This document shows, piece after piece, positions 14,219-54,057 of a stretch of 64,000 nucleotides of DNA. Position 1 is the first letter of the stretch. The number at the start of each line of letters is the position of its first letter. A model generated the notes under the pieces. The model was not told the DNA's origin. It saw only the letters and a program-made list of their open reading frames with translations, and did not search any database. The stretch covers positions 40,885-104,884 of the forward strand of contig JADFYJ010000007.1 of NCBI GenBank assembly GCA_015233115.1, read 5' to 3'. Position numbers and translations under genes: made by a program. This stretch comes from Candidatus Omnitrophota bacterium. GTDB taxonomy: Bacteria > Omnitrophota > Gorgyraeia > Zapsychrales > Zapsychraceae.

Positions 14219-14233
14219 TAAAAGCAGTATGTA

Positions 14234-14270
14234 AATCCTTTCTAAATCCTTTCTAAATCCTTTCTAAATC
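14234..14270 (+). repeat. Tandem 11-bp repeat (aaatcctttct), about 3.4 copies
   Basis: Read directly from the sequence, downstream of the MFS stop. Confidence 0.8.
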
Positions 14271-36467: not shown

Positions 36468-37430
36468 ATGAATCGCCCTTACCATAATCCGACAAATAAT
36501 TATAATCAGCGCCGTTCTATGCAGCGTCCAGCGTATCATCCGCCGGTTCGCAATTTAAGCGACGCCGAGAAAAAATTCATGAGCGGAACAGTCATTGATC
36601 CATGCCCACGGATCCGCTTAGAAGACGGCTCTGACAAACTCAGCATGCGCGCCATGGATTTGATTTGTCCGATCGGCATGGGACAGAGGGGATTGATTGT
36701 CGCGCCGCCCGGATCAGGGAAAACCACCTTTCTTAAAGATATTTGTCAAGCCGTCATTAAAAGCTGTCCACAAATCAAACTGTATTGCCTGCTGATTGAC
36801 GAAAGGCCGGAAGAAGTCACTGACTTTAAACGCGCGGTATCAGCAGAAATCCGCTCATCGTCTTCTGATCAGAGCTATGATCAACATGTGGCGGTCGCTG
36901 ATGAATTAATGAGGCAAGTGGTCAGCGAAGCAGGGAATGGAGAGAATGTGATGGTGTTAATTGATTCACTGACTCGTCTTTCCAGAGTCCATAACGCGGA
37001 GCAGCGTAACAGCGGCAGGACGTTATCTGGCGGCATGGATGCCCGCGCGCTTGAAGTCCCCAGACGTATTTTTGGTTCAGCCCGTAAAATCGAAAACGGA
37101 GGATCACTTTCCATTCTGGCTACTATTTTAATCGAAACCGGCAGCCGCATGGATGAAGTGATATTTGAAGAATTCAAAGGCACAGGGAACATGGAAATTG
37201 TACTTTCCCGTGAAATCGCTAACCATAGAATTTATCCAGCCATTAACATTAGCCGCAGTGCCACCCGCAAAGAAGAATTGCTTTTAAGCCCTGATGAGCT
37301 TGAACCTGTCCGCAATATCAGGCGTGCCTTAATCGGATTAAACCAGGTTGAAGCCGCCCAAACCTTGGTTGATATGCTTCGAAAATTTCCCACCAATAAA
37401 GAACTTCTGCAACGACAAAGTACAGAGTAG
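36468..37430 (+). CDS. rho: Transcription termination factor Rho, lacking the N-terminal OB-fold RNA-binding domain
   Basis: GQRGLIVAPPGSGKTT (Walker A), LIDERPEEVT, Q-loop and R-loop regions and a C-terminal GTGNMEIVLSR are all present. Only about 45 residues precede the ATPase core, against about 130 in canonical Rho. Confidence 0.8.
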   Translation: MNRPYHNPTNNYNQRRSMQRPAYHPPVRNLSDAEKKFMSGTVIDPCPRIRLEDGSDKLSMRAMDLICPIGMGQRGLIVAPPGSGKTTFLKDICQAVIKSCPQIKLYCLLIDERPEEVTDFKRAVSAEIRSSSSDQSYDQHVAVADELMRQVVSEAGNGENVMVLIDSLTRLSRVHNAEQRNSGRTLSGGMDARALEVPRRIFGSARKIENGGSLSILATILIETGSRMDEVIFEEFKGTGNMEIVLSREIANHRIYPAINISRSATRKEELLLSPDELEPVRNIRRALIGLNQVEAAQTLVDMLRKFPTNKELLQRQSTE

Positions 37431-37600
37431 AGAGTACAAAGTACAGAGTAAAAAACAAGACAAAATATTTTAAAAAATATAATTATAAAATCTAAAAATT
37501 TTTTTAAATTTCGATCCAAATCAACTTATTTGCTCACTCCAATTTAATCTATTTTTTTAATTTTCACTCTGTACTCTGCGTACTCTGCGTCTCTGTACTG
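37419..37600 (+). repeat. Inverted oligo-repeat pair (agtacagagtagagagtacaaagtacagagta / cactctgtactctgcgtactctgcgtctctgtactg) flanking a 110-bp AT-rich spacer; the left arm overlaps the rho stop
   Basis: Reverse-complementary gtacagagta units, read directly. Confidence 0.7.
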
Positions 37601-39180: not shown

Positions 39181-39906
39181 ATGTCAAAAATATTAGAACC
39201 GGTTACAATTCTCATTCCAAGTCGCTATAACAATCGTTTGATTCTTGAATTGAACATTAAAACCATACGAAAATATACAACCGATTATCCTTATAAAATT
39301 ATTATTGGTGATGCTGGCATTGATAAAGAAACCATGGATTTTTTAACTCAACAAAACGATATTGAAATTGTCGTTTGCCCTGACCAAAAACGGCCTAAAG
39401 ACCATTTAGCCCGTATCTGTAATACCAAATATTTTATTTTTTTCCATGATGATATTCATATCTTACGCCCTGGATGGTTATCTCGGCGCGTCGAAATAAT
39501 GGAAACAAATCCACAAATCGGAGTGTCCGGAGTTATGGGCAATAATTTAATCCCTGGCTGGAAATGGAAACAGTTTATTCCGTTTTTGCCCGTATTATAC
39601 AAACGCTTTTTCCCGCTTATGCTTATGGTCAGAAATGAAACACAAAAAGAATTAGATCTAACTTGGTCAAAAATAAAGGGATTTGATACCGGAGCCATTG
39701 CTTATTATCAATTCTGCCGTCAAAAAAAATGGAAATTTAAGCCATATCCGTTTAAACATGATATCAAACATTGGGGGGCGATGACCTGGGTTGTTCAGCA
39801 TAAAACAGACCATCAACCGTCGAAATTGGATCTCAATAATTTACTGCTGATTCGGACGGAAAAAGAACAGCTCATAAAAAAGATATTGGAAAGCGGCCAA
39901 TTTTAA
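39181..39906 (+). CDS. Hypothetical protein, possible GT-A fold glycosyltransferase
   Basis: The ILIPSRYN...IIIGDAG N-terminus resembles GT2 nucleotide-binding motifs; weak. Confidence 0.35.
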   Translation: MSKILEPVTILIPSRYNNRLILELNIKTIRKYTTDYPYKIIIGDAGIDKETMDFLTQQNDIEIVVCPDQKRPKDHLARICNTKYFIFFHDDIHILRPGWLSRRVEIMETNPQIGVSGVMGNNLIPGWKWKQFIPFLPVLYKRFFPLMLMVRNETQKELDLTWSKIKGFDTGAIAYYQFCRQKKWKFKPYPFKHDIKHWGAMTWVVQHKTDHQPSKLDLNNLLLIRTEKEQLIKKILESGQF

Positions 39907-39961
39907 AAAATCCCCCTTTACAGGCACAAAAAAATCTGGTATAAATGGCTTCCATTTTAAT

Positions 39962-39993
39962 GCCGGCGTAGCCCGTTCGACATCGCTCAGGAC
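39962..39993 (+). repeat. Conserved element duplicating the first 11 nt of the downstream tRNA (upstream of tRNA-Thr)
   Basis: gccggcgtagc (identical to tRNA-Thr nt 1-11) followed by ccgttcgacatcgctcaggac. The paralogous unit at 50168-50199 carries the tRNA-Pro 5' end instead. Confidence 0.7.
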
Positions 39994-40017
39994 TTGCCGG
40001 AAAATATAAAATTTTGT

Positions 40018-40090
40018 GCCGGCGTAGCTCAGTTGGTAGAGCAATTGACTTGTAATCAATAGGTCGGGGGTTCGAAGCCTCTCGCCGGCT
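40018..40090 (+). tRNA. tRNA-Thr (anticodon TGT)
   Basis: Cloverleaf: acceptor gccggcg/cgccggc, anticodon stem attga/tcaat, loop cttgtaa, T-loop ttcgaag; no encoded CCA. Confidence 0.85.
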
Positions 40091-40113
40091 TTTATCGCTC
40101 TTTTTAAATTTTT

Positions 40114-40196
40114 GGGTAGGTACTCAAGTGGTCAAAGAGGACAGACTGTAAATCTGTTGCGCTTGCGCTTCCAAGGTTCGAATCCTTGCCTGCCCA
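40114..40196 (+). tRNA. tRNA-Tyr (anticodon GTA), long variable arm
   Basis: Acceptor gggtagg/cctgccc, anticodon stem acaga/tctgt, loop ctgtaaa, variable arm gcgcttgcgc, T-loop ttcgaat. Confidence 0.85.
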
Positions 40197-40330
40197 TTTT
40201 TAAAAATTAATCTAGTAAGGCAGTGAAGGATGAGAAGAGAGCTCTGCTTATAACTACGACGAATAGGAGTAGTTATAGAGCGAGTGGCCGACCGAAGCAA
40301 CGCGGAGGCGCCAGAATCCTTGCCTGCCCA
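40197..40330 (+). ncRNA. tRNA-Tyr-linked 3' element: conserved hairpin (actac-GACGAATAGGAG-gtagt) + gcgagtggccgaccgaag + ggcgcc + duplicate of the last 17 nt of tRNA-Tyr + T-run
   Basis: Shares its core with 40559-40669. The stem shows compensatory changes and the loop is conserved. The 3' end repeats gaatccttgcctgccca. Confidence 0.55.
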
Positions 40331-40342
40331 TTTATAAATTTT

Positions 40343-40478
40343 GTAAGTGGTAAACGTGGCAAAGGCAGTAAAGGTGATTGAATGGCGATTCATGAATCGC
40401 CCACTAAAAAAATATCGTTTTTTCAATTATCTGTTTTTATTACCTTTACCTCGTTTACCACCTTTATCACCTTTACAA
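40343..40478 (+). repeat. Inverted oligo-repeat pair (gtaagtggtaaacgtggcaaaggcagtaaaggtgat / tacctttacctcgtttaccacctttatcacctttacaa) with a central perfect 18-bp palindrome ggcgattcatgaatcgcc (40384-40401)
   Basis: Read directly from the sequence; lies upstream of tRNA-Gly. Confidence 0.7.
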
Positions 40479-40487
40479 CTTATTCGT

Positions 40488-40558
40488 GCGGGCGTAGTTC
40501 AGTGGTAGAATGCAAGCCTTCCAAGCTTGTTACGTGGGTTCGATTCCCATCGCCCGCT
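40488..40558 (+). tRNA. tRNA-Gly (anticodon TCC)
   Basis: Acceptor gcgggcg/cgcccgc, anticodon stem caagc/gcttg, loop cttccaa, T-loop ttcgatt. Confidence 0.85.
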
Positions 40559-40669
40559 TTTTTTCCCGGAAAGGGAATCGAAGGGAGCGGAGCAAGATGC
40601 GACGAATAGGAGCATCTGGCTTGCGAAGCGAGTGGCCGACCCGAAGGGCGCCGATTCCCATCGCCCGCT
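40559..40669 (+). ncRNA. tRNA-Gly-linked 3' element: hairpin (gatgc-GACGAATAGGAG-gcatc) + gcgagtggccgacccgaag + ggcgcc + duplicate of the last 17 nt of tRNA-Gly + T-run
   Basis: Same architecture as the tRNA-Tyr element. The 3' end repeats gattcccatcgcccgct, followed by tttttt. Confidence 0.55.
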
Positions 40670-40701
40670 TTTTTATTTCATCATCCACCTACGGCTTTCA
40701 T

Positions 40702-41301
40702 ATGAAAAATCTCAGACCCCTTATCTTGACTTTAATCCTTGTTTTATCAAGTCCCATCGTATACGCTGCACCTGTTAATTATTTGATCACTCCTAACAAA
40801 ACTGAATTGATATTTTTAGGTACCTCTACACTGCATGCATTTCATGGCGACTGTAAATCGTTTAAAGGCGAACTCCAATTTACTGAAAAACCACAATCAG
40901 CTCCTGACATTTCCGGCAGAGTCGTTGTTGATGTGAACATGATGACCACGGGTAATAAAACGATGGATCTTAAAATGTTTCAAATGCTTCAAAACGACCA
41001 ATTTCCCATTATTGTATATGAAATCCAAAAATTTATTCCAACAACAAAAACATTAACTGAAGAATCCATACCGGGAAAACTGATCGGACAATTAACGATC
41101 CGTAAAATAACTTTGCCCATTGAATGTGAAGTTGTTGTTAGAAAAACAGTCCGCGGTGAATACGATCTGGAAGGGAAGTCAAAATTAAGTTTAATTGAAT
41201 TCCAAATGAAACCGCCAACCGTATTAAAAATTCTTAACGTGCATGATCCTGTTGGAATTATTTTTACAGCAACCCTGGAACCCAATCTTCAAAAACCGTG
41301 A
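40702..41301 (+). CDS. YceI-family periplasmic protein
   Basis: Signal peptide plus ...TELIFLGTSTLHAFHGDCKSFKGEL..., characteristic of YceI-like domains. The track ORF's N-terminal extension overlaps tRNA-Gly and is rejected. Confidence 0.6.
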   Translation: MKNLRPLILTLILVLSSPIVYAAPVNYLITPNKTELIFLGTSTLHAFHGDCKSFKGELQFTEKPQSAPDISGRVVVDVNMMTTGNKTMDLKMFQMLQNDQFPIIVYEIQKFIPTTKTLTEESIPGKLIGQLTIRKITLPIECEVVVRKTVRGEYDLEGKSKLSLIEFQMKPPTVLKILNVHDPVGIIFTATLEPNLQKP

Positions 41302-41379
41302 CAATGTGACAATGCAAAAACAAAAAACGATTGTTGGCAAAACGAAAATTTTTATTAAGACAAACTAGTTAGGAAACGC

Positions 41380-42084
41380 ATGAAAGTAACTCTTTTAATT
41401 CCGACTTTAAATGAAATCGACGGCATGAAAACTATTATGCCCAAGGTTAAACGCGAATGGATCGATCAGATCCTGGTCGTTGATGGGCAATCCACTGACG
41501 GAACTGCTGACTATGCGCGAGCGCAAGGTTATGATGTGGTCATCCAACAGCAAAAAGGCATCCGCCACGCTTACATGGAAGCTTTGCCGCACATTCAAGG
41601 CGATATTATTCTGACCTTTAGTCCGGATGGAAATTCAATTCCCGAATTGATCCCGGAGTGTCTCAATAAAATGAAAGAAGGATACGATATGGTTATCGTA
41701 TCTCGCTACGCCAAAGGCGCGAAAAGTTATGATGATGATGCCATTACCGCTTTTGGAAATAAAGTTTTCACCACTTCAATCAGTTTATTACATGGTTTTC
41801 CCTATACTGACGCCATGGTCATTTACCGGGCCTACAAAAAAAGTTTAATCACTGAACTCGATCTAGATAAAGATGAAAGTTATGCCTTTCCAGAAAAACT
41901 ATTTAATACTAAAATAAGCTGGGAACCGTTATTATCGATTAGAGCGGCAAAACGTAAATTAAAGATCGCCGAAATTCCTGGAGATGAACCAGTCCGCGAA
42001 GGCGGCGAACGCAAACTCCAAGTCATGAAATGGGGCGCGGCATACATGTATCAAGTGATCAGTGAAGTATTTATTTGGAAGTAA
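41380..42084 (+). CDS. Glycosyltransferase family 2 (dolichyl/polyprenyl-phosphate sugar synthase-like)
   Basis: LLIPTLNE...VVDGQSTDGT...SPDGN GT2 motifs. Confidence 0.7.
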   Translation: MKVTLLIPTLNEIDGMKTIMPKVKREWIDQILVVDGQSTDGTADYARAQGYDVVIQQQKGIRHAYMEALPHIQGDIILTFSPDGNSIPELIPECLNKMKEGYDMVIVSRYAKGAKSYDDDAITAFGNKVFTTSISLLHGFPYTDAMVIYRAYKKSLITELDLDKDESYAFPEKLFNTKISWEPLLSIRAAKRKLKIAEIPGDEPVREGGERKLQVMKWGAAYMYQVISEVFIWK

Positions 42085-42103
42085 AAAGGAAAAATACATT
42101 AAT

Positions 42104-43099
42104 ATGAAACATATATCAATTATCGGCGACGGCGGGTGGGGGACCACTTTAGCTGTTCATTTGGCAAAAAAAAATTATTCCATCAAACTCTGGGGAGCGT
42201 TCGCGCCTTATGTGGCGGAAGTATCGCAAACCCGGATTAATTCAAAATTTTTACCCGGCATAAGATTACCGGTGAGTATTGAATTATCTTCTGACCTCAA
42301 ATATATATTATCCCAATCAGACCTTTGGGTATTTGCCGTGCCATCCAAATATGCGGCGGATGTGTTAAAGCAGATTAAATCTTCCAAAATTAATTTACAT
42401 GGGAAAACCATAGTCAGCGTAACTAAAGGGTTAGATACCAAAACTCTTAAACGCATGTCCGAGATCATAGCAGATCAACTCCAAGGGATACAAGTTGCTG
42501 TCTTATCCGGGCCGACGATTGCCATGGAAGTCGCGCAAGGAATCCCGTCCACTGCCGTCGTTGCGTCTAAAAAGTTAAGCACAGCTAAAGCCATTCAAGA
42601 AATCTTTAATTCTTCGACCTTCCGCATTTATACCAATACAGATGTTATCGGTGTTGAGCTGGGAGGAACTGTAAAAAATATTATCGCGATAGCTTGCGGT
42701 GTATGCGACGGATTAAAATTCGGCACAAATACCAAATCTGCCATTGTCACCCGCGGCTTGGCAGAAATGTCCCGGCTGGGAAAAGCCATGGGCGCCAAAC
42801 AACGCACCTTGATCGGTTTAACCGGTTTAGGTGATCTGGTTACAACCTGTTTTAGCCCGCGCAGTCGCAACCGCACCTTTGGTGAACAACTGGGTTCTGG
42901 AAAAAAAGCCAAAGATATTTTAGCGTCTATGGAAATGGTAGCAGAGGGAGCGGAGTCTGTTCAAGCTGTGCATAAACTGAGTCAAAAACTCGACGTATCC
43001 ATGCCGATTACAACCGAAGTTTTCAATATCGTGTACAAAGACAAAAACCCGATGCAAGCTGTGACAGATTTAATGACTCGCAAAACGAAATCCGAATAA
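42104..43099 (+). CDS. gpsA: NAD(P)H-dependent glycerol-3-phosphate dehydrogenase
   Basis: ISIIGDGGWGTTLA Rossmann motif and conserved GpsA blocks (VTKGL, GLGDL). Confidence 0.85.
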   Translation: MKHISIIGDGGWGTTLAVHLAKKNYSIKLWGAFAPYVAEVSQTRINSKFLPGIRLPVSIELSSDLKYILSQSDLWVFAVPSKYAADVLKQIKSSKINLHGKTIVSVTKGLDTKTLKRMSEIIADQLQGIQVAVLSGPTIAMEVAQGIPSTAVVASKKLSTAKAIQEIFNSSTFRIYTNTDVIGVELGGTVKNIIAIACGVCDGLKFGTNTKSAIVTRGLAEMSRLGKAMGAKQRTLIGLTGLGDLVTTCFSPRSRNRTFGEQLGSGKKAKDILASMEMVAEGAESVQAVHKLSQKLDVSMPITTEVFNIVYKDKNPMQAVTDLMTRKTKSE

Positions 43100-43104
43100 A
43101 TGTC

Positions 43105-44028
43105 ATGTCCGATTTATTCAATCATATCCATAAGGATTCCCCTGCCAAAATTATCAGCGTGAGCCGGCGCACAGATATTCCCGCGTTTTATACTGATTGG
43201 TTCATAAACCGGGTCAGAGCAGGTTTTTGTGAAGTCGCCAATCCGTTTAATCCCCAGCAGGTCGCCACAGTCAGCTTAAAACCTGAACATGTCATTATTT
43301 TTATTTTTTGGACCAGAGATCCAAAACCATTAATGAAATATCTCCCTGAACTTGACGAAAAAGGTTATCAATACTATTTTCTTTACACAATTACGGGCTA
43401 TCCCAAGCCTTTGGAAAAATCATCGCCTTCCTATGATGTCGCCATAAAAACATTCCGGGAACTCAGCCGAATGATCGGCAAAGAGAAAGTTATCTGGCGA
43501 TACGATCCATTGATTTTATCTAACTTAACTCCAGTTAAATGGCACATGGAAAACATTTCACAATTTTTAAATGATCTAAGCGGTTATACGGACCGCATGA
43601 TGATCAGCATTGTTGAACCGTACAAAAAAACGCTGAACCGGCTGAAAACTGAAACAGATGATCATTTCACTTTAATGACAGACACGTTTTCGTCTGAACC
43701 ATATGCCCCCATTTTTAAATATATAGGCGAGACTGCTCCCCAAAAAGGCATCACACCTATGACGTGCGCCCAGCGCTATGACCTGAAACAATTTGGAATC
43801 CAACATGGTTCATGCATAGACACGGAACTGATTAATAAAATTACCGGAATCAAACGGACTTTTGCGAAAGATCCGTATCAGCGCGAATTTTGCCATTGTG
43901 CCGCGGCCAAAGATATTGGAGCGCCAAATACTTGTTTATTTGGATGCCCGTATTGTTATGCTACAATCAGTCATAAAACAGCGGTTAACAATTATAGGAA
44001 ACATGATAAAATAGCACCACATATGTAA
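43105..44028 (+). CDS. DUF1848 domain protein with a C-terminal Cys cluster
   Basis: ISVSRRTDIPAFYTDWF N-terminus, and a C-terminal CHC...CLFGCPYCYA motif. Confidence 0.45.
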   Translation: MSDLFNHIHKDSPAKIISVSRRTDIPAFYTDWFINRVRAGFCEVANPFNPQQVATVSLKPEHVIIFIFWTRDPKPLMKYLPELDEKGYQYYFLYTITGYPKPLEKSSPSYDVAIKTFRELSRMIGKEKVIWRYDPLILSNLTPVKWHMENISQFLNDLSGYTDRMMISIVEPYKKTLNRLKTETDDHFTLMTDTFSSEPYAPIFKYIGETAPQKGITPMTCAQRYDLKQFGIQHGSCIDTELINKITGIKRTFAKDPYQREFCHCAAAKDIGAPNTCLFGCPYCYATISHKTAVNNYRKHDKIAPHM

Positions 44029-44044
44029 AATTATTGTCATTCCC

Positions 44045-44128
44045 GCGAAAGCGGGAATCCAAAAATAAATTATATTTTATTATTACTGGATCCCCGAATC
44101 AAACACTCGGGGATGACAACTTTAAGTA
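44045..44128 (+). repeat. Double-hairpin repeat element, copy 2
   Basis: tgtcattcccgcgaaagcgggaatcca...tggatccccgaatcaaacactcggggatgaca, near-identical to copy 1 apart from the spacer. Confidence 0.8.
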
Positions 44129-44149
44129 TGTTTGGTTAGGACAGAATAA

Positions 44150-44899
44150 ATGAACTTTTTAAAATCATTACTTGCCTGGTTTTTACGAATAATTTTATTG
44201 CTCTGTATTATCGCAATCTGCGGCTATAAAATTTTAACCTCTTCAAAATGGACGGAAAAATTTGCCGGGCAAATTATCAACCGTCAAGTCACTAACGCCA
44301 GTCTTAAAGATCTAAAAATCAAAAAAATAATTCTCACCCCGAATGATTATATTTGGGAAAAAGTCTCTTTTCATGTGACAACCCAAGGCCAGGATTTCTT
44401 CGTCAACGTTGACCGCGCACAAATTCACAATTTAACTTCTGAAAAATGGGACGTATTCATCACAGACTTACACTTAACTAATACCAATATCTCGCTCAGC
44501 AATGCCAATTTATATGGCAAATTTCAATGGAAGGGACCCCTGACATTTAAAGGCCTGGTTTATGCCAAAGTCCTGAATGACAATTATAAAGGAATAGTTG
44601 CCGGGCCCCTGGCATTTAAAGGAACAGCAAAATCAATCTCCAAATTTAATGCTCATTTAACCTCAACACAGGGGGATATAGCCTCTTCCTTAATCCGCTA
44701 TTTAATGGGAGACGTGAACAATAATTTATCTTTTCTGCCTTTTGAAAACCAACTCAACAAGAAAAAATTTATACGGCTTGAAAATTTAAACCTTACCATT
44801 CATAATAGAACCCAAGATAAATTTGAGATTCAGATGTCATTAAACAGTAATGAATTAAATTTAAAACTGAATCCGACCTTAACCATTAATTTGAGGTAA
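44150..44899 (+). CDS. Hypothetical membrane-anchored protein (possibly a YdbH-like fragment)
   Basis: N-terminal TM; positioned upstream of the ynbE and ydbL homologs as ydbH is in E. coli, but much shorter. Confidence 0.35.
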   Translation: MNFLKSLLAWFLRIILLLCIIAICGYKILTSSKWTEKFAGQIINRQVTNASLKDLKIKKIILTPNDYIWEKVSFHVTTQGQDFFVNVDRAQIHNLTSEKWDVFITDLHLTNTNISLSNANLYGKFQWKGPLTFKGLVYAKVLNDNYKGIVAGPLAFKGTAKSISKFNAHLTSTQGDIASSLIRYLMGDVNNNLSFLPFENQLNKKKFIRLENLNLTIHNRTQDKFEIQMSLNSNELNLKLNPTLTINLR

Positions 44900-44903
44900 A
44901 CCC

Positions 44904-45107
44904 GTGAAAAATTATTTGTTGTCATTTTGCATTTTGGGCATCGCGGTTTTATTTTCCGGATGTACCGTGAAAGCTGTCGGAGACCCCAACCGCCCCATCA
45001 CGATTAACGCGCGCATCACGATCGACGTTAATGGATTAAAAGACACCGCCGCCAACATTGAAGATTATGTCAGCGGAAAAAAAGAACAAATTAAAGTTAA
45101 GAAATAG
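44904..45107 (+). CDS. YnbE-like lipoprotein
   Basis: Lipobox FSGC followed by PITINARITIDV, as in the YnbE family. Confidence 0.5.
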   Translation: MKNYLLSFCILGIAVLFSGCTVKAVGDPNRPITINARITIDVNGLKDTAANIEDYVSGKKEQIKVKK

Positions 45108-45116
45108 GAGATATCC

Positions 45117-45524
45117 ATGAAAAAAATATCAATACTTTCACTTTTAGTTTTAGGATTAATGTTAGCAAACGCTGGTTTAGTTTTTGCCGCGCAATATGAT
45201 CTCAAACAAATGACCCCTGAAGTTCAGCAAGCATTAGACAGCCGAAAATCCCGTTTTAGCGAATTAGAAAGCCTTAAAACAGCAGGGAAAATTGGTGAAA
45301 CTAACCAAGGTTATGTACAGGCTTTATCCGGCGACTCTCAAGCTGCGTCTGTTGCGTCCCAAGAAAACTCTGACCGCCGAGTTGTTTATCAAACGATTGC
45401 TGAACAAAACGGTATCGCCGATCAAATATCGATAGTGGAGCGCGTTTTTGGCCAAGTCCAAAAAGACAAAGCCGCACCTGGCGTCAAAGTTCAAAACGAA
45501 GATGGCTCCTGGGTTACAAAATAA
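45117..45524 (+). CDS. YdbL-like periplasmic protein (DUF1318)
   Basis: Signal peptide and a motif pattern similar to YdbL; the gene context matches. Confidence 0.5.
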   Translation: MKKISILSLLVLGLMLANAGLVFAAQYDLKQMTPEVQQALDSRKSRFSELESLKTAGKIGETNQGYVQALSGDSQAASVASQENSDRRVVYQTIAEQNGIADQISIVERVFGQVQKDKAAPGVKVQNEDGSWVTK

Positions 45525-45561
45525 ATTTAATTACTGATTTTCTTAGAAAAGGAAAATAATA

Positions 45562-46089
45562 ATGGCAGGGGAAATTGTGCACGATAAATGGTTACGCTGG
45601 GTAGCGCTCACGACAACAATTCTGGCAGTTATTACTGCGATATTCTCCATGAAAGCATCTGGATTTAGCACCAAGGTGCAAATTTTAACGACTAAAGAAA
45701 ACAACCAGTGGGGCTATTTCCAATCTAAAAGTATCAAACAACACAGCCTAGAACTGCAAAAAGACCTGTTTATTCTGGAAAAATCCCGTGATGGCAACAA
45801 TTCGCAATTTACAGAGTATTTGTCCAAAAAAACTGACGAATATCAAAAAGACCTTGATCGATACAACAAAGAAAAGGCGGAAATTAAAAAAAGCGCGGAA
45901 GACACTATCAAAGAAGAAGAAAAATTTAAGAATAAAGGGGCAAGTCTAGGTCTAGGCGTTATGTTCTTACAAATCTCAATCATGCTATCGTCCGTAGGCG
46001 CCCTCATTAAAAAGCAAGAACTTTGGATTATTGGTTTGTGTTTTGGATTAATCGGAGTTTTTTACGGTGTAATCGGACTTATAAAATAA
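45562..46089 (+). CDS. Hypothetical membrane protein (DUF4337-like)
   Basis: One N-terminal and two C-terminal TMs with a central coiled coil. Confidence 0.4.
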   Translation: MAGEIVHDKWLRWVALTTTILAVITAIFSMKASGFSTKVQILTTKENNQWGYFQSKSIKQHSLELQKDLFILEKSRDGNNSQFTEYLSKKTDEYQKDLDRYNKEKAEIKKSAEDTIKEEEKFKNKGASLGLGVMFLQISIMLSSVGALIKKQELWIIGLCFGLIGVFYGVIGLIK

Positions 46090-46098
46090 GGGTTAACT

Positions 46099-46665
46099 TT
46101 GCAAGCTTTCTTAACATCATTTATATTCGTATTTTTGGCAGAGATGGGTGATAAAACCCAGCTTTTGGCCATGGCATTTGCCAGTAAATATAATCCCTAT
46201 AAAGTTCTTATCGCCATTTGTATTGCGACACTCATCAATCACAGTTTGGCTGTGGCCGCAGGGAAATTATTAAGCACGATCATTCCCATGAACATCATTT
46301 CCCTAATCGCAGCTATATCATTTATTATTTTTGGCTTATGGACGATTCGCGGAGATAAACTGGAAGGAGAAGACAAAAAGCAAAGTCGCTTTGGGCCTAT
46401 TCTAACCGTTGCCATCGCGTTCTTCTTGGCAGAAATGGGAGACAAAACCCAATTAGCCACCATGAGCTTAGCCATTGAATTCAAAAATCCATTTTTCGTT
46501 CTCATAGGTACTACTTTTGGCATGATCATTGCGGACGCATTTGGAATTATTGCCGGTGTAGTATTGCATAAACACATTCCCGAAAAAACCATCAAATGGG
46601 CTTCAGCCAGCATTTTCATCTTATTTGGCATCTTCAGCATCTATCAAATCGTAACAGGCCGTTGA
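46099..46665 (+). CDS. UPF0016/GDT1 (TMEM165) family cation transporter
   Basis: Two EMGDKTQL (E-x-G-D-K-T) motifs. Confidence 0.75.
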   Translation: MQAFLTSFIFVFLAEMGDKTQLLAMAFASKYNPYKVLIAICIATLINHSLAVAAGKLLSTIIPMNIISLIAAISFIIFGLWTIRGDKLEGEDKKQSRFGPILTVAIAFFLAEMGDKTQLATMSLAIEFKNPFFVLIGTTFGMIIADAFGIIAGVVLHKHIPEKTIKWASASIFILFGIFSIYQIVTGR

Positions 46666-46746
46666 CCTTGTCTTTTGTCAATTATATGTTATATTTTCCC
46701 ATAGCCTCCTTGGTTATCTAATATTAATAACGCTGATTTAAATATT

Positions 46747-49700
46747 ATGAATTTAAAAAATTTTAAACAAACTCAGTTTTTCCGTCTCATTGCTTGCTGG
46801 ATTTTATGCAATTTTTTAATTGCATCTTTTATGCCGCCGCAAGGGGCTTGGGCGCAGACTGTTCTGAATTTGCCAATTCCAGGCACAATGCTGACAACTA
46901 CGCCAGCATATACGCCAATCATGGTAAAAGGTCTGCAGATTCACCCTGAAAACCCGCTGTTATTCGATTTTATTGTTGATACAGGCAAGTCCGGGCTTAA
47001 AGTAGATAGCTCCAATTTTAAAACCGAATCTCAAAAACTTATTAAATATTTTTTAGCTTCCCTGACTATCAAAGAGGAAAATTTATGGGTCAACTTATCG
47101 CCCTATGAAAAAAACCGGATTATGCCTAAAGATTTGAGTCAAACCGAACTCGGACGGGATATGCTGGCGCAAGATTATATTTTAAAACAATTAACCGCGT
47201 CTTTAATTTATCCTGAAAAAGAATTAGGGAAAAAGTTTTGGGACGCCGTATATTTAAAAATTTATGAAAATAGAAGAGAGAAAATAGAAGATAGACCAAC
47301 ACCAAAAAACAAATCGACAACAACGATCGCTTCTAATCTATCTTCTCCCGTCTATCATCTATTATCTGATAATTTAGACCTTCCAACCAACATATTGAGC
47401 AAAGTCTGGATCGTGGCAGATAAAGCTAAAGTGCTTGAAAAAAACAATACAGCCTATATTGTCGGCGCACATCTAAAAGTGCTTTTGGATACCGATTATT
47501 TGGCAAAACAAATGGCACCGGCATCCAAAAGCACAGCCCAAGAACAAATAGAGCCGCAAATCATGCGTCAAATCATCATTCCTGAAATCGAACGCGAAGT
47601 GAACGAAGGCGCGCATTTCGCCCAATTACGCCAAATGTTTCATTCCATGATCTTGGCCGCTTGGTATAAACAAACCATTAAAAATTCACTGCTTAATCAA
47701 GTGTATAGCAATAAATCAAAAACAAATGGCGTTCAGGTTGACGATCTTGCTATTAAAGAAAAAATTTATCAGCAATATTTAGACGCTTATAAAAAAGGTG
47801 TGTTTAACTATATCAAAGAAGATTATGATTCTGCCAACCAGCAAATAACCTCCCGAAAATATTTCTCCGGAGGAGAAGATTTCGCGATGTTAAAAAATGT
47901 CGAACGAGAAACTAAACTTGTAAAAGGAGATCAAAATCCGGACGTCCCAATCGGTGATACCGCCTTGGTATCCTTTGATATTCAAAAAGCTACAAACCCT
48001 GATCGTGCCCTGCTCAACACTTCAGAGTTAACCATGTCCAAATTCTCGACCACAGAAGAACCGGGAATCAAAATTATTGATCATATTATATTTCATTGGG
48101 AAGGGAAAGAAGTGCTGTTGCTTTTAAATGCTGCCCAAAAAATAACTAAAGGGTATAGTTTAATTTATGATGTTTTTATTGATCAAAAAGCAACAAAAAC
48201 TCTGACCGTTCATCTTCATCCAGTAAATGATAAAATGATTGTTAAATCGTTTGATTATATTTTTGAAGAAAACAAAGACTTCGAAAACGTGCTTCATCAC
48301 TGGCTTAACTCACAAATACACTTACCCTGGGATGGCTCTTTCTTTTCTAAATCAACAACTGAACCAACAACTGCGCCAACTCCAGAACTAACGATTTATC
48401 CTAAAACCATATTGCCTAAAGCAACACATCACTTTACATTACAGCATGAAGCGTCTGCTATATTCGAAGAGCAAGGAACAGAACATCCGCTTAAACTTAC
48501 TATAGAAAGAGCTGATGAACGCTATCAGAAACATGTATATTTTGTCAAAAAAGAAAATGGCCATGGTGAACAATCCTATACCCTTCCTCACGAGCCTGAT
48601 GTAGCGGACAGCATTCCGGCTATTTTTTGGAGATACATAGGAGACAGTGATGAAACCGAAATTGTTTTTAACAATAAATCGACGAACCCGTTTATCATGA
48701 CCCTCACAAATCCCATTGATCAAGCCATGATGGATTCATCAAACGATTATTTAACAGCTAACCTGCCATTTTCAATAGCGGAAAGCATTGTTTCGACTGT
48801 TTTAAAACAAAAAAATTTTACTTGGCAAACTAAAGACAAATTAAAAAACGAATTGTTAAATTACATTATCCAACACGTGAATTCAGATAAATTAATAACT
48901 TTTGTAGAAAATGTCCTGACCAATGCTTTAACTCAATATGTCAGCATACCAGAAATTAATCCGCAAAATCCAGCAGAAACTGAGCATTGGCGCATTAATA
49001 ATGAACGAAAACGTCAGATTTTTGAATTTCTCCAAGGGATAAATTCTAGAATTGTAAAAATCGGCCGTTTAAGTGATAAAAAAATTGCTGTCAGCCTTTG
49101 GATCACTCCCATTATTGCCAAACAAACTCAATTTGAACCATATTTTGCTGAAAATATTTTATGGTCCCAAGTGGCATCTGGTGTCGCAGAACAGACTATT
49201 CGTAACCTCCAAGATAGTTTTGTTAAATTAAAATTATTTGATATTAAAAACGACAAACTAACGCTTTCCACTATTAGTAAAAACGAACATGATGAAAATA
49301 TACGCATCTTAAATTTTGATTCCCCTGAAAACTCTGCTAAATTGGAGATTCGCTATAAAGATCCTGAGATGAATGGCAAAGGGGAGAGATCATTATCTTA
49401 CAAATTTATTGTCAAAGGCCAACCCCGAGCTATAAAATTTATTAAAATATTTTCAAATAAAGAAGAAGCAAGGCAAATATTTGACTACCAATATCTGCCC
49501 AATAGACCTACGGATAAAACGTTGAAGTTATTGACAACAGACATACTTTTTCATGGAAAAATGATAGACGCGGCTATGGCCGCTAAAGCAGAAATAAAAC
49601 AAATCAATGGCGGCATTGATCTCAATTCCAAAAATATGAGCATAGATATTACTAACCCTTTGACTATCTCAGGGTCTAAGCCTCTGATTAAATTTGACCC

Positions 49701-49788
49701 GGGTATGATCGCGGAATTTGAAGCTGGCGATTTTTCAGGGGTAACTTTTAAGATAATCAGCATCATACCCATTCAAAATACCCTTTGA
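46747..49788 (+). CDS. Large secreted hypothetical protein (1013 aa); the N-terminal 350 aa are paralogous to the ORF at 62723
   Basis: Signal peptide. The conserved block LIKYFLASLT..ENLWVNLSPYEK.RI.PK...QTE.GRD.LAQDY.LKQ.TASL.YPE is shared with the window-end ORF. Confidence 0.6.
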   Translation: MNLKNFKQTQFFRLIACWILCNFLIASFMPPQGAWAQTVLNLPIPGTMLTTTPAYTPIMVKGLQIHPENPLLFDFIVDTGKSGLKVDSSNFKTESQKLIKYFLASLTIKEENLWVNLSPYEKNRIMPKDLSQTELGRDMLAQDYILKQLTASLIYPEKELGKKFWDAVYLKIYENRREKIEDRPTPKNKSTTTIASNLSSPVYHLLSDNLDLPTNILSKVWIVADKAKVLEKNNTAYIVGAHLKVLLDTDYLAKQMAPASKSTAQEQIEPQIMRQIIIPEIEREVNEGAHFAQLRQMFHSMILAAWYKQTIKNSLLNQVYSNKSKTNGVQVDDLAIKEKIYQQYLDAYKKGVFNYIKEDYDSANQQITSRKYFSGGEDFAMLKNVERETKLVKGDQNPDVPIGDTALVSFDIQKATNPDRALLNTSELTMSKFSTTEEPGIKIIDHIIFHWEGKEVLLLLNAAQKITKGYSLIYDVFIDQKATKTLTVHLHPVNDKMIVKSFDYIFEENKDFENVLHHWLNSQIHLPWDGSFFSKSTTEPTTAPTPELTIYPKTILPKATHHFTLQHEASAIFEEQGTEHPLKLTIERADERYQKHVYFVKKENGHGEQSYTLPHEPDVADSIPAIFWRYIGDSDETEIVFNNKSTNPFIMTLTNPIDQAMMDSSNDYLTANLPFSIAESIVSTVLKQKNFTWQTKDKLKNELLNYIIQHVNSDKLITFVENVLTNALTQYVSIPEINPQNPAETEHWRINNERKRQIFEFLQGINSRIVKIGRLSDKKIAVSLWITPIIAKQTQFEPYFAENILWSQVASGVAEQTIRNLQDSFVKLKLFDIKNDKLTLSTISKNEHDENIRILNFDSPENSAKLEIRYKDPEMNGKGERSLSYKFIVKGQPRAIKFIKIFSNKEEARQIFDYQYLPNRPTDKTLKLLTTDILFHGKMIDAAMAAKAEIKQINGGIDLNSKNMSIDITNPLTISGSKPLIKFDPGMIAEFEAGDFSGVTFKIISIIPIQNTL

Positions 49789-49821
49789 CCCCTAATTACG
49801 AATTTTAATTCGTAATTGGGG
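49789..49821 (+). terminator. Hairpin terminator candidate (cccctaattacgaatt/aattcgtaattgggg)
   Basis: 15-bp inverted repeat immediately after the stop at 49788, followed by gttt. Confidence 0.55.
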
Positions 49822-50167
49822 TTTGACTTAATCCGACAAGTTTTCTTTTGCATTTATGCGATAATTTTGTATAATAACGATCATTTTTTTGATAGAGTAT
49901 ATATCCATTAACAAGTAATAATAATTAAATTAAAATTATATCTGGACAAGTCATAGACCTGTCCAAAAAATAGGACTGTTGAAAAATGCTTAGATACAAG
50001 GCATTTTCTGAATGAGCGCGGAGGCCGTTTTTCTGGATATGTTATTGAAACCGGCACTACGCTAAGATATTAAATATTTATATCTTTTGTCGACGTACAA
50101 TAGTTATATATTGATAGGCGAATGAAGAAATAACGCCGTAGATAAGCGTTTTGCAACAGTCCTTTAT

Positions 50168-50199
50168 CGGAGCGTAGCCCATTCGACTGCGCTCAGGAC
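50168..50199 (+). repeat. Conserved element duplicating the first 11 nt of tRNA-Pro (upstream of tRNA-Pro)
   Basis: cggagcgtagc (identical to tRNA-Pro nt 1-11) followed by ccattcgactgcgctcaggac; paralogous to 39962-39993. Confidence 0.7.
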
Positions 50200-50223
50200 A
50201 TTACTAAACGACAATTTTTTAAA

Positions 50224-50297
50224 CGGAGCGTAGCGCAGCTGGCTAGCGCACTAGTATGGGGTACTAGTGGTCGAGAGTTCGAATCTCTCCGCTCCGA
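50224..50297 (+). tRNA. tRNA-Pro (anticodon GGG)
   Basis: Acceptor cggagcg/cgctccg, anticodon stem ctagt/actag, loop atggggt, T-loop ttcgaat. Confidence 0.85.
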
Positions 50298-50362
50298 CTT
50301 TTTCAACTTTGTACTCTCTACTTTGCGTACTCTGTACTTTAACCTTCAGAAAAGGATGTCCT

Positions 50363-53116: not shown

Positions 53117-53335
53117 GTCACAAAGACACAAAGTCACAAGGTCACAAAGGGAAATAAAGATAATAAAAGCAATTAATAAAAAAAATGCAAACATTTAAAT
53201 TATTAAGAAGTCGCGTTTAGTTTTTCATAAAATTTAAACAAATACTTTTTTGAAAGCGAATATAGATTTAATTTTTGTTATTCTATTTTTCATTTCTTAA
53301 ACATTGTGACTTTGTGACCTTGTGTCTTTGTGACC
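53117..53335 (+). repeat. Inverted oligo-repeat pair (gtcacaaagacacaaagtcacaaggtcacaaagg / ttgtgactttgtgaccttgtgtctttgtgacc) flanking a 150-bp AT-rich spacer between thrC and coaB
   Basis: Reverse-complement arms with about two mismatches, read directly. Confidence 0.75.
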
Positions 53336-53342
53336 TCTAAAT

Positions 53343-53993
53343 ATGCAAAATAAATCTGTTCTTATTACTTGCGGCCCAACCTGGACGCCGATTGATGACA
53401 TGCGGGTGATCAGCAATAAATCGAGCGGAACGCTGGGGCATATCCTTGCGGATTTATTCTGCAAAAAAGGATTTAAAGTTACTTTGCTGGAAGGACCGGT
53501 GCAGGAGAGGATGAAACCGGTAAAGAATCTAACGATTATCCCATTTCAGTATTATAGCGAATTTCGCGCGGAACTTTTAAAAGCGCTTAAACAAAATTTT
53601 GATATTGTCGTGCACGCGGCAGCTGTGTCTGATTATCAATTAAAGAAACCATTTAACCAAAAAGTCAGTTCTCATTTAAAGGAACTTAAACTCACTTTAG
53701 TGCCGACGGAAAAATTGATTTCTTTGATCAAACAGAAAAGCCCAAAAAGTTGTCTGGTAGGATTTAAGCTGGAATCATCAATTGCCGCAAAATCCGCCAT
53801 TAGAAAAACTGAAGATTTATTTAACCAGGCGCAATGTGATTTAGTCATTTTAAATTCATTAACCGGAAACAAATATTACGGCGTAATTTTAAACAAAAAC
53901 CGCGAAATCCTCGCACAAGCATCAAGCCGCGAAGAAATCGCGAATCACTTGATCAAAATTTTTAACCAAAAACCAACAAATAACGACCTGTAG
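53343..53993 (+). CDS. coaB: Phosphopantothenate--cysteine ligase (standalone CoaB)
   Basis: VLITCGPTWTPIDDMRVISNKSSGTLG matches the CoaB/DFP consensus (ITAGPT.EPID.VR.ISN.SSG). No CoaC flavoprotein domain is fused. Confidence 0.65.
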   Translation: MQNKSVLITCGPTWTPIDDMRVISNKSSGTLGHILADLFCKKGFKVTLLEGPVQERMKPVKNLTIIPFQYYSEFRAELLKALKQNFDIVVHAAAVSDYQLKKPFNQKVSSHLKELKLTLVPTEKLISLIKQKSPKSCLVGFKLESSIAAKSAIRKTEDLFNQAQCDLVILNSLTGNKYYGVILNKNREILAQASSREEIANHLIKIFNQKPTNNDL

Positions 53994-54057
53994 ATTTTTA
54001 TATTTTATTTTTTGACCAAAAACCATCAACCAAAAACCATTAGATTTTTATATTAAA

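Follow-up and report, generated by a model that had tools for sequence, protein, structure and literature searches.

In a 64,000-nt stretch of DNA from a Candidatus Omnitrophota bacterium (contig JADFYJ010000007.1, positions 40,885 to 104,884; the whole stretch is called the window below), the genes for tRNA-Thr and tRNA-Pro are each preceded by a short unit that opens with an exact copy of the tRNA's own first 11 nt and continues with a shared 21-nt core. The best reading of these units is that they record tRNA-gene integration at the rare 5′ sublocation and in miniature form, the mirror image of the classical 3′ integration at tRNA genes, which also left 3′ units at tRNA-Tyr and tRNA-Gly in the same window. 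An earlier sequence-only reading of this DNA had proposed either elements that insert at tRNA genes or a conserved promoter or leader module; we find the first proposal largely right and the second not supported.

Duplicated 5′ ends at tRNA-Thr and tRNA-Pro

The window holds four tRNA genes (found by both ARAGORN and Rfam), all on the + strand. Together with the parts of the two 5′ units they are laid out as follows.

39962-39972, + strand: displaced or duplicated copy of tRNA-Thr nt 1-11, GCCGGCGTAGC, an exact 11-mer
39973-39993, + strand: 21-nt core of the Thr unit, CCGTTCGACATCGCTCAGGAC, a copy of a multi-phylum repeat
39994-40017, + strand: AT-rich 24-nt spacer from core to tRNA-Thr
40018-40090, + strand: intact tRNA-Thr(UGU), 69.3 bits
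40113-40197, + strand: tRNA-Tyr(GUA)
40488-40558, + strand: tRNA-Gly(UCC)
50168-50178, + strand: displaced or duplicated copy of tRNA-Pro nt 1-11, CGGAGCGTAGC, an exact 11-mer
50179-50199, + strand: 21-nt core of the Pro unit, CCATTCGACTGCGCTCAGGAC, with an identical 21-mer in Planctomycete-like contigs
50200-50223, + strand: AT-rich 24-nt spacer from core to tRNA-Pro
50224-50298, + strand: intact tRNA-Pro(GGG), 61.1 bits

The geometry is the same at both tRNAs: the copy starts 56 nt before the gene, and 24 nt lie between the end of the core and tRNA nt 1. The layout described in the sequence-only reading (copy, core, 24-nt gap) is confirmed at both sites. The two cores are identical at 18 of 21 positions, and a search of the 64-kb window with up to 3 mismatches found no further copy beyond these two; the spacers are unrelated (8 of 24 matches, counted by eye). 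The 11-nt copies are well above chance level: GCCGGCGTAGC occurs at two sites in 64 kb (39962-39972 and 40018-40028) where shuffled sequences lead one to expect 0.04, and CGGAGCGTAGC likewise at two (50168-50178 and 50224-50234) against an expectation of 0.00. Because nt 5-11 (GCGTAGC) are identical in tRNA-Thr and tRNA-Pro, the tRNA-specific part of the copies is nt 1-4 only, which is exact in both. The Thr repeat runs 1 nt further upstream, to a T at 39961 (TGCCGGCGTAGC), and the Pro repeat goes on as 14 matches of 15 (CGGAGCGTAGCnCA).

Each 32-nt element of the sequence-only reading would thus be the left junction of a small insertion made up of 45 nt of foreign DNA and an 11-nt direct repeat. 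Mobile DNA would have recombined into the 5′ part of the tRNA gene (acceptor strand and start of the D-stem), such that the upstream copy of nt 1-11 is the displaced, attL-like fragment, the intact tRNA downstream is the regenerated, attR-like gene, and the core is the end of the inserted DNA at the junction. Transcription would most likely still start from the old upstream promoter and run through the unit, with RNase P trimming the true 5′ end. Units of this size have no room for an enzyme gene, and would therefore be scars left by larger elements or miniature non-autonomous derivatives that are moved in trans.

Empty and filled tRNA sites in Omnitrophota

The homoserine dehydrogenase (Hom) of the window is 90% identical to a protein from a Candidatus Omnitrophota metagenome-assembled genome, and its other best matches are all from Omnitrophota; exact-protein look-ups with two window proteins gave no match. 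We compared the window with two orthologous contigs, L121 (Hom 90% identity) and L122 (65%). Both keep the Thr-Tyr-Gly cluster, the tRNA-Pro upstream of PilZ-hom-thrC, and a TTTACA-17-TATAAA promoter upstream of tRNA-Thr, and at their orthologous loci neither the 5′ units nor the 3′ units are present. Because the units are absent from loci with the same synteny and promoter, all four are insertions specific to the window lineage; for the Thr and Pro units, comparison of the aligned loci marks them as recent, lineage-specific insertions.

The exact junctions are less clear than the absence of the units. At the Thr locus, MAFFT opens one 48-nt gap in the relatives, and it lies inside the leader and not at tRNA nt 11/12. 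An alternative reading of this alignment is an insertion of 56 nt at tRNA nt 11/12 combined with an 8-nt deletion in the leader, and one outgroup cannot separate the two. At the Pro locus, the flank of the upstream copy (AGTCCTTTAT followed by CGGAGCG) resembles, when read by eye, the flank of the relative's tRNA (AGTCCTACTTTT followed by CGGAGCG), which makes the upstream copy look like the former junction; MAFFT aligns these flanks differently, the leader alignment being ambiguous there. By-eye comparison with L121 shows tRNA-Tyr identical, tRNA-Pro different at 1 position, and tRNA-Thr (40018-40090 versus L121 666-738) different at about 7 of 73 positions, including compensating changes in the acceptor and anticodon stems. 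The upstream Thr copy has the window's derived C3, not the T3 of the relatives.

Insertion on the 5′ side of tRNA-Pro recurs in other Omnitrophota. In L243, whose Hom is 66% identical to that of the window, tRNA-Pro is preceded by 4.2 tandem 117-nt units (2841-3329) with copies 98% identical to one another. Each unit opens with tRNA-Pro nt 1-13, next to which comes CCTTCTGCTGCGCTCAG, a diverged core, and the real tRNA-Pro closes the array; the Pro core/unit of the window matches the L243 units at 86% over 29 nt. The repeat is 13-17 nt long here, as compared to 11 or 12 nt in the window.

Two groundwater Omnitrophota species have both empty and filled alleles of tRNA-Pro(GGG). The empty alleles (L343 and L353-L355) have the order NTP-transferase gene, promoter, tRNA-Pro, PilZ. 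The filled alleles (L344 2226-3592 and L351 2388-3815) carry genes for an HTH_17 protein and for a tyrosine integrase of full length (359 or 363 aa) and reach up to or into tRNA nt 1-10, with the integrase gene ending 0-12 nt before tRNA-Pro; in L351 its stop codon is the tRNA's own U8-A9-G10. In one of the species the filled tRNA starts with CGGGGCG and the empty one with CGGAGCG, against an unchanged 3′ strand, CGCTCCG, that pairs with CGGAGCG; the element therefore brings its own tRNA 5′ part. In L364 and L365 we found the attL junction, about 100-230 nt after the NTP_transf_3 gene, where host promoter and host tRNA nt 1-40 give way to element DNA. The elements thus cross over in the anticodon loop yet carry the tRNA 5′ half, an arrangement that, as read from these alleles, is the mirror image of the classical one. 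Predicted integrases acting on the 5′ part of a tRNA gene do then exist in the phylum, though their crossover lies in the anticodon loop and not in the D-arm.

No similarity was found between the 45-nt inserts of the window and the ends of these full integrase elements. In a third group (L244), an integrase fragment, an IS200-type gene and an IS110 fragment abut the tRNA 5′ end. A related Omnitrophota contig has a small unit after tRNA-Pro (L354 1606-1720) that is bounded by a duplicated 3′ end, and the T-stem of the displaced fragment differs from that of the resident tRNA. In Omnitrophota, the 5′ side is used repeatedly, in at least four lineages at tRNA-Pro and in one at tRNA-Thr. The absence of the units from the two closest relatives, the L243 array and the integrase alleles at tRNA-Pro together bear out the proposal that elements insert at tRNA genes and copy their termini.

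The remaining features around the tRNA cluster are these.

39899-39961, + strand: weak integrase-like remnant, translation KKSPFTGTKKSGINGFHFN (tblastn E = 0.008-0.009, borderline)
39917-39945, + strand: sigma-70-like promoter TTTACA-17 nt-TATAAA upstream of the Thr unit, in columns conserved in the alignment with relatives that have no unit
40198-40338, + strand: 3′ unit after tRNA-Tyr, an insert of about 110 nt and then a duplicate of the tRNA 3′ end at 40314-40338
40559-40674, + strand: 3′ unit after tRNA-Gly, an insert of about 88 nt and then a duplicate of the tRNA 3′ end at 40652-40674

The 3′-end-duplicating units had also been noticed in the sequence-only reading, and they are real: the Tyr unit is bounded by a 25-nt repeat (40180-40204 and 40314-40338, 24/25 identical) and the Gly unit by a 23-nt repeat (40541-40563 and 40652-40674, 23/23). 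These repeats span from the T-loop to a few bases past the end of the tRNA gene. Common to both inserts are GACGAATAGGAG, placed in a hairpin loop, and AGCGAGTGGCCGACC; the hairpins share the conserved loop GACGAATAGGA and differ in their stems (ataactac/gtagttat versus agatgc/gcatct).

In the integrase-like remnant, 13 of 21 residues match integrase residues 257-277, just before the HDLRH box of Omnitrophota integrases. It ends 1 nt before the Thr unit, outside the bounded DNA, and may be what is left of an old integration event upstream of tRNA-Thr; we offer this as a lead only. The remnant shares positions with the TTTACA-17-TATAAA promoter, and L121 retains part of it.

Between tRNA-Tyr and tRNA-Gly lies a spacer of 290 nt, compared to 6-12 nt in the relatives. 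Part of it (40339-40487) is a long imperfect palindrome in which GGTAAAGG/GTGGTAAAC words surround a GGCGATTCATGAATCGCC hairpin; these words recur at 768-806. Similar hairpins (GTGGTAAG...CTTACCAC) adjoin tRNAs in L122 and L343, and this type of palindrome looks like a second family of small palindromic insertions. A repeat scan of the window also returned an 8-nt ACxTTGTG array (53301-53332), a 46-nt pair spaced 50 nt (53959-54054), three copies of 11-nt TAAATCCTTTC in an array (14232-14270), and a 15-nt pair spaced 21 nt (37415-37450).

The core repeat and GIY-YIG genes across phyla

We searched a genome collection and metagenomes for the core, in the genome collection with a loose pattern that took in generic copies and in the metagenome scan with a TRGY prefix; all counts are lower bounds. 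Core-like copies occur at more than 240 loci in many phyla, and share a conserved block of about 26 nt (consensus gCCCTTCGACTnCGCTCAGGACAgGC) between unconserved flanks. Among the matches listed are Acidobacteriota, Planctomycetota, Verrucomicrobiota, Chloroflexota, Nitrospirota, Cyanobacteria, Bacteroidota, Proteobacteria, candidate phyla radiation groups and others. A nearly invariant 24-26-nt block, GCCCTTCGACTnCGCTCAGGACAGGC, recurs throughout L001-L120 and L123-L242 (e.g. L083 4150-4800, L005 380-430, and L169), often near contig ends. Of the matches listed in the genome-collection scan none has a GTAG prefix, and the TRGY-prefixed metagenome matches listed are dominated by a Planctomycete-like repeat.

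Almost all of these copies, among the matches listed, are far from any tRNA; outside the window only one of them, in L091, directly abuts a tRNA. Because most copies sit at non-tRNA loci in many phyla, the core does not hold up as the tRNA-linked motif that the sequence-only reading took it to be, while the duplication of tRNA ends is untouched by this. The distribution indicates that the likeness of the Thr and Pro elements stems from a widespread repeat that is not specific to tRNA genes.

In L091 (7297-7450), the 3′ end of a tRNA-Ser(UGA) runs directly into the motif (..CTCCGCCCATTCGACTACGCTCAGGACGTCGC); after a gap of 7 nt comes a second copy of the motif, again preceded by the final 7 bases of the tRNA, and a tmRNA gene lies 750 nt upstream. 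Small 3′ units that contain the motif and duplicate the tRNA end are also present in one Acidobacteriota and one Planctomycetia contig. Units of about 80-155 nt with duplicated 3′ ends follow tRNA-Arg and tRNA-Leu in phyla other than Omnitrophota (L049 219-560, and L032 1568-1830 on the reverse complement); in L049 the small unit stands twice in tandem, with the motif variant CCCTCGGCTGCGCTCGGGAT.

The motif also forms 24-nt tandem arrays (L005, L169), and in Planctomycete-like contigs from sediment it has the appearance of 25 nt inserted within ATTGGGTTTG repeats. Such contigs (L144, L159, L167 1-300, and many of L123-L242) contain arrays of about 120-nt modules built of ATTGGGTTTG 11-mers, a T-run and a conserved CATTTTCATAATCC segment, with the 25-nt motif in some modules and not in others; on the other strand, each module could encode a predicted peptide of about 20 aa with a ribosome-binding site. 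Several explanations of the motif were tried and rejected: as coding sequence it has no preferred reading frame, flanking hairpins have stems barely above control, and the open reading frames (ORFs) downstream of the Planctomycete copies are mostly too short for these copies to be 5′ untranslated regions of a gene family. By-eye resemblances to the 5′ ends of 16S rRNA and tmRNA, to 5S rRNA and to the D-arm of class II tRNAs were put down to chance. One viral scan gave 0 matches and another gave 90 matches to a 15-mer, none with the extended unit context; a literature search on the core sequence found unrelated primers only and no description of the block.

The motif family tends to accompany genes for small GIY-YIG proteins (PF01541, about 93 aa). 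Seven distinct motif loci have such a gene, which in 5 of the 7 lies at most 300 nt from a motif-like copy, and in Sphingomonas alba a GIY-YIG pseudogene is placed between inverted motif copies. Among 120 GIY-YIG homologues sampled independently, 15 ORFs were N-terminally extended, and 6 of these read through PExVEG or LSxSKG, peptides that CCTGAGCnnGTCGAAGGG, the motif's reverse complement, encodes. Automatic gene calls often carry GIY-YIG ORFs on through the reverse-complement motif upstream; GIY-YIG genes preceded by it are found at L083 4210-4600, L167 387-1170, L006 7670-8000, and for the proteins P0146, P0149, P0150, P0169, P0186 and P0259. Several GIY-YIG genes directly follow a tmRNA or tRNA gene, and most contigs with these genes are very short, as repeated DNA would give. 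The 3′ units of the window align with the motif region upstream of a GIY-YIG gene elsewhere; next to the units themselves, no GIY-YIG gene was found in the 64-kb window. A literature search on GIY-YIG proteins and repeats returned fungal mitogenome papers only.

Origin of the units and comparison with known systems

That the units were made by a recombinase acting on the 5′ part of the tRNA gene, as opposed to a nuclease or transposase that makes target duplications, is in our judgement an evenly balanced proposition; the enzyme could be an integrase or part of a target-site-duplication mechanism. For a recombinase speak the exact repeats and the same geometry at two tRNAs, and the blocks of identity, which in each of the three independent cases begin at tRNA nt 1 or -1, as would be expected if selection acts on nothing but the tRNA part of an attP mimic. 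The 3′ scars with T-loop-to-3′-end repeats in the window and its relatives, the weak integrase-like remnant abutting the Thr unit, the L243 array, and the empty and filled integrase alleles with their attL at tRNA-Pro point the same way. Of the features of an att scar, we found an intact tRNA with a displaced fragment as an 11-12-nt repeat bounding 45 nt at both tRNAs, and an empty site in L121 and L122; neither an integrase inside the bounded 45 nt nor a demonstrable source was found.

Several observations weigh against a recombinase acting on the tRNA 5′ part. At four different tRNAs, the repeats that flank related inserted DNA are specific to the tRNA concerned; a single integrase with a single attP cannot bring this about, whereas a target-copying mechanism could. 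The 24-nt spacers are unrelated yet of exactly equal length, a unit of 56 nt cannot on its own serve as a circular substrate for recombination, and the 48-nt leader gap leaves the true Thr junction ambiguous. The mapped full elements cross over in the anticodon loop, have a repeat of about 40 nt and not 11, and have a left end without the core. Moreover, a search of the 64-kb window for integrase, Y1 transposase and GIY-YIG genes found none, the 21-aa remnant aside.

A possible, though less favored, explanation is target-site duplication, in which a short non-autonomous element centred on the core was inserted by a nuclease or transposase making staggered cuts of 11-13 nt (5′ end) or 17-25 nt (3′ end). 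We include in this same estimate a variant in which double-strand-break repair or template switching used microhomology of the D-arm (GTAGC / GCTCAG) with the motif (gAGC followed by CC.TTCGAC..CGCTCAG), with GIY-YIG proteins as candidate enzymes. A copy made from the target automatically gives different repeats around related inserts, as seen at the four tRNAs, and the core does behave as an independent module of about 25 nt, with unconserved flanks, 24-nt arrays and placement inside other repeats. The similar small 3′ units in Acidobacteriota and Planctomycetia fit as well, as does the association of motif and GIY-YIG genes: the gene flanked by inverted copies in L083, the 5 of 7 loci within 300 nt, the 6 of 15 ORFs, and the genes directly after tmRNA or tRNA genes. 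However, the units have no terminal inverted repeats, their right halves are unrelated, and repeat lengths vary (11-12, 13-17, 23 and 25 nt). About 228 motif copies, arrays set aside, show no general excess of flanking duplications, and there is no GIY-YIG gene at the relatives' loci any more than in the window. Nor would a staggered cut predict a repeat that in three cases has tRNA nt 1 as its exact start. We know of no biochemical link between this GIY-YIG family and the motif.

A more speculative proposal, which we think rather unlikely, is that the four window units, together with those of Acidobacteriota and Planctomycetia, are undescribed miniature mobile elements built on the motif of about 25 nt and served in trans by GIY-YIG nucleases; they would home to either end of a tRNA gene via acceptor-stem or D/T-arm sequence and duplicate the terminus so that the gene survives. 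Such a partnership of motif and nuclease would resemble that of repetitive extragenic palindromic (REP) sequences with RAYT, with a different enzyme. The link of motif and GIY-YIG genes offers a testable handle on the role of an abundant, functionally obscure nuclease family, and may matter more than the scars themselves.

It is improbable that the units are functional leaders or promoters, in which the core, either with TTCGAC as a -35 or as a hairpin that binds protein or RNA, would act with the acceptor-strand copy as a decoy to control transcription of the tRNA or processing of its 5′ end. The distance from core to nt 1 is identical at both loci even though the spacers are unrelated, the 5′ copy can pair with CGCT(C) of the core into a small hairpin, and the 56-nt Pro unit folds with z = -2.35 relative to shuffles. 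Yet folding of the Thr unit is no better than that of shuffled sequences (z = -1.28 and -1.47), and Rfam 15 covariance models, applied to the units and the motif up to E = 10, matched only tRNAs and a tmRNA. An automatic promoter scan lists TCGACA-17-GAAAAT in the Thr unit (9/12 match) and called nothing in the Pro unit; it did not list TTTACA-17-TATAAA, because the second hexamer ends in A, although this is probably the real promoter of the tRNA cluster, being conserved in relatives. TTCGAC has no properly spaced -10, the best -10-like hexamers being 22-23 nt away. The earlier suggestion of a promoter or leader module with ttcgac as a -35 fails on this spacing and on the upstream promoter kept in relatives that have no unit, and the idea of a module conserved at tRNA genes fails on its absence at the orthologous tRNAs of L121 and L122. 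In other genomes, moreover, the core lies mostly far from tRNAs among the matches listed.

A decayed tandem tRNA duplicate or pseudogene, in which the upstream copy lost nt 12-76 and left TTCGA and GCTCAG as T-loop and D-arm relics, is very improbable: the core does contain these T-loop-like and D-arm-like words, and the minus strand of the Pro unit (GTCGAAT-GGGCTA-CGCTCCG-A) by reading resembles the tRNA-Pro 3′ end, but the core recurs across many phyla in hundreds of settings that are not tRNA genes, decay at two separate loci would not halt at one and the same nucleotide and share a period of 56 nt, even at E = 10 there is no tRNA-like match, and the relatives have no tandem tRNA copies. 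A REP/RAYT origin was rejected as well, with GTAG as frequent upstream of the motif as in the control (8 in each), no Y1 matches in motif loci or the window, the GTAG of the units being the tRNA's own G7-G10, and the motif stem test barely above control. For a miniature inverted-repeat transposable element (MITE), terminal inverted repeats are absent: by inspection, nothing at the right end of either unit is an inverted match to the left end, CC.TTCGAC.

Among known systems, free-standing GIY-YIG homing endonuclease genes, such as segB of phage T4 in the phage tRNA cluster, offer one comparison. Similarly, small GIY-YIG genes accompany the motif family, and several of these adjoin tRNA or tmRNA genes; unlike the homing endonucleases, the proteins here are about 93 aa, with the catalytic domain only and no known homing activity, and none is encoded in the window. 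Like REP/REPIN-RAYT systems and MITEs, the core is short, multi-copy, mostly intergenic and assembly-breaking, with some copies in hairpins. It differs in that the units have no terminal inverted repeats, GTAG enrichment or linked Y1/RAYT gene, and in that the motif crosses phyla whereas REPs are species-specific.

In the literature on streptococcal integrative and conjugative elements, cis-mobilizable elements (CIMEs) are att-flanked remnants of integrative elements that have no recombination genes. The window units are similar in having att-type repeats at a tRNA and no recombinase of their own, and tandem arrays are possible in both (compare L243 and L049). Known CIMEs are, however, kilobase-sized and located at 3′ ends, and mobilization of the window units is putative. 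The data do show that tiny units that have no genes but bear repeats of tRNA ends persist and amplify.

The elements of L344 and L351, with their attL in L364 and L365, are closer in that they belong to the same phylum, use the same tRNA-Pro, supply the 5′ part, and displace the host 5′ fragment upstream. Unlike the window units they are kilobases long, have int and xis-like genes, an anticodon-loop crossover and a repeat of about 40 nt, and a left end that lacks the core.

Tyrosine-integrase islands and prophages in tRNA and tmRNA genes (Reiter 1989; Williams 2002 on sublocations; Islander, PMC4383910) share the intact tRNA with a displaced fragment and variable presence. The Tyr and Gly 3′ units of the window fit the T-loop-to-3′-end pattern of such islands, whereas in the 5′ units it is the 5′ end that is duplicated, the bounded DNA is 45 nt with no integrase inside, and the repeat is 11-12 nt. 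Islander-type tools look for displaced 3′ tRNA fragments; 5′ scars would be missed by such island finders or misread as promoters.

The sequence-only reading was right that duplication of a 5′ end is not classical att behavior, but a rare precedent exists. A survey of Klebsiella found rare islands upstream of arg2 tDNA whose recombination site is the 5′ acceptor strand, D-stem and D-loop, termed the D-loop sublocation (bioRxiv 10.1101/2020.11.02.365908), so that integration duplicating the 5′ end is known but uncommon. As in the window, the element stands on the 5′ side of the tRNA and the site covers the 5′ acceptor strand and D-stem/D-loop. The Klebsiella islands are at least 3.5 kb, encode an integrase and occur in Enterobacteria, whereas the window has gene-less 56-nt units, in Omnitrophota, at two tRNAs and with one core. 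Such scars would record, date and orient past integration in uncultured phyla.

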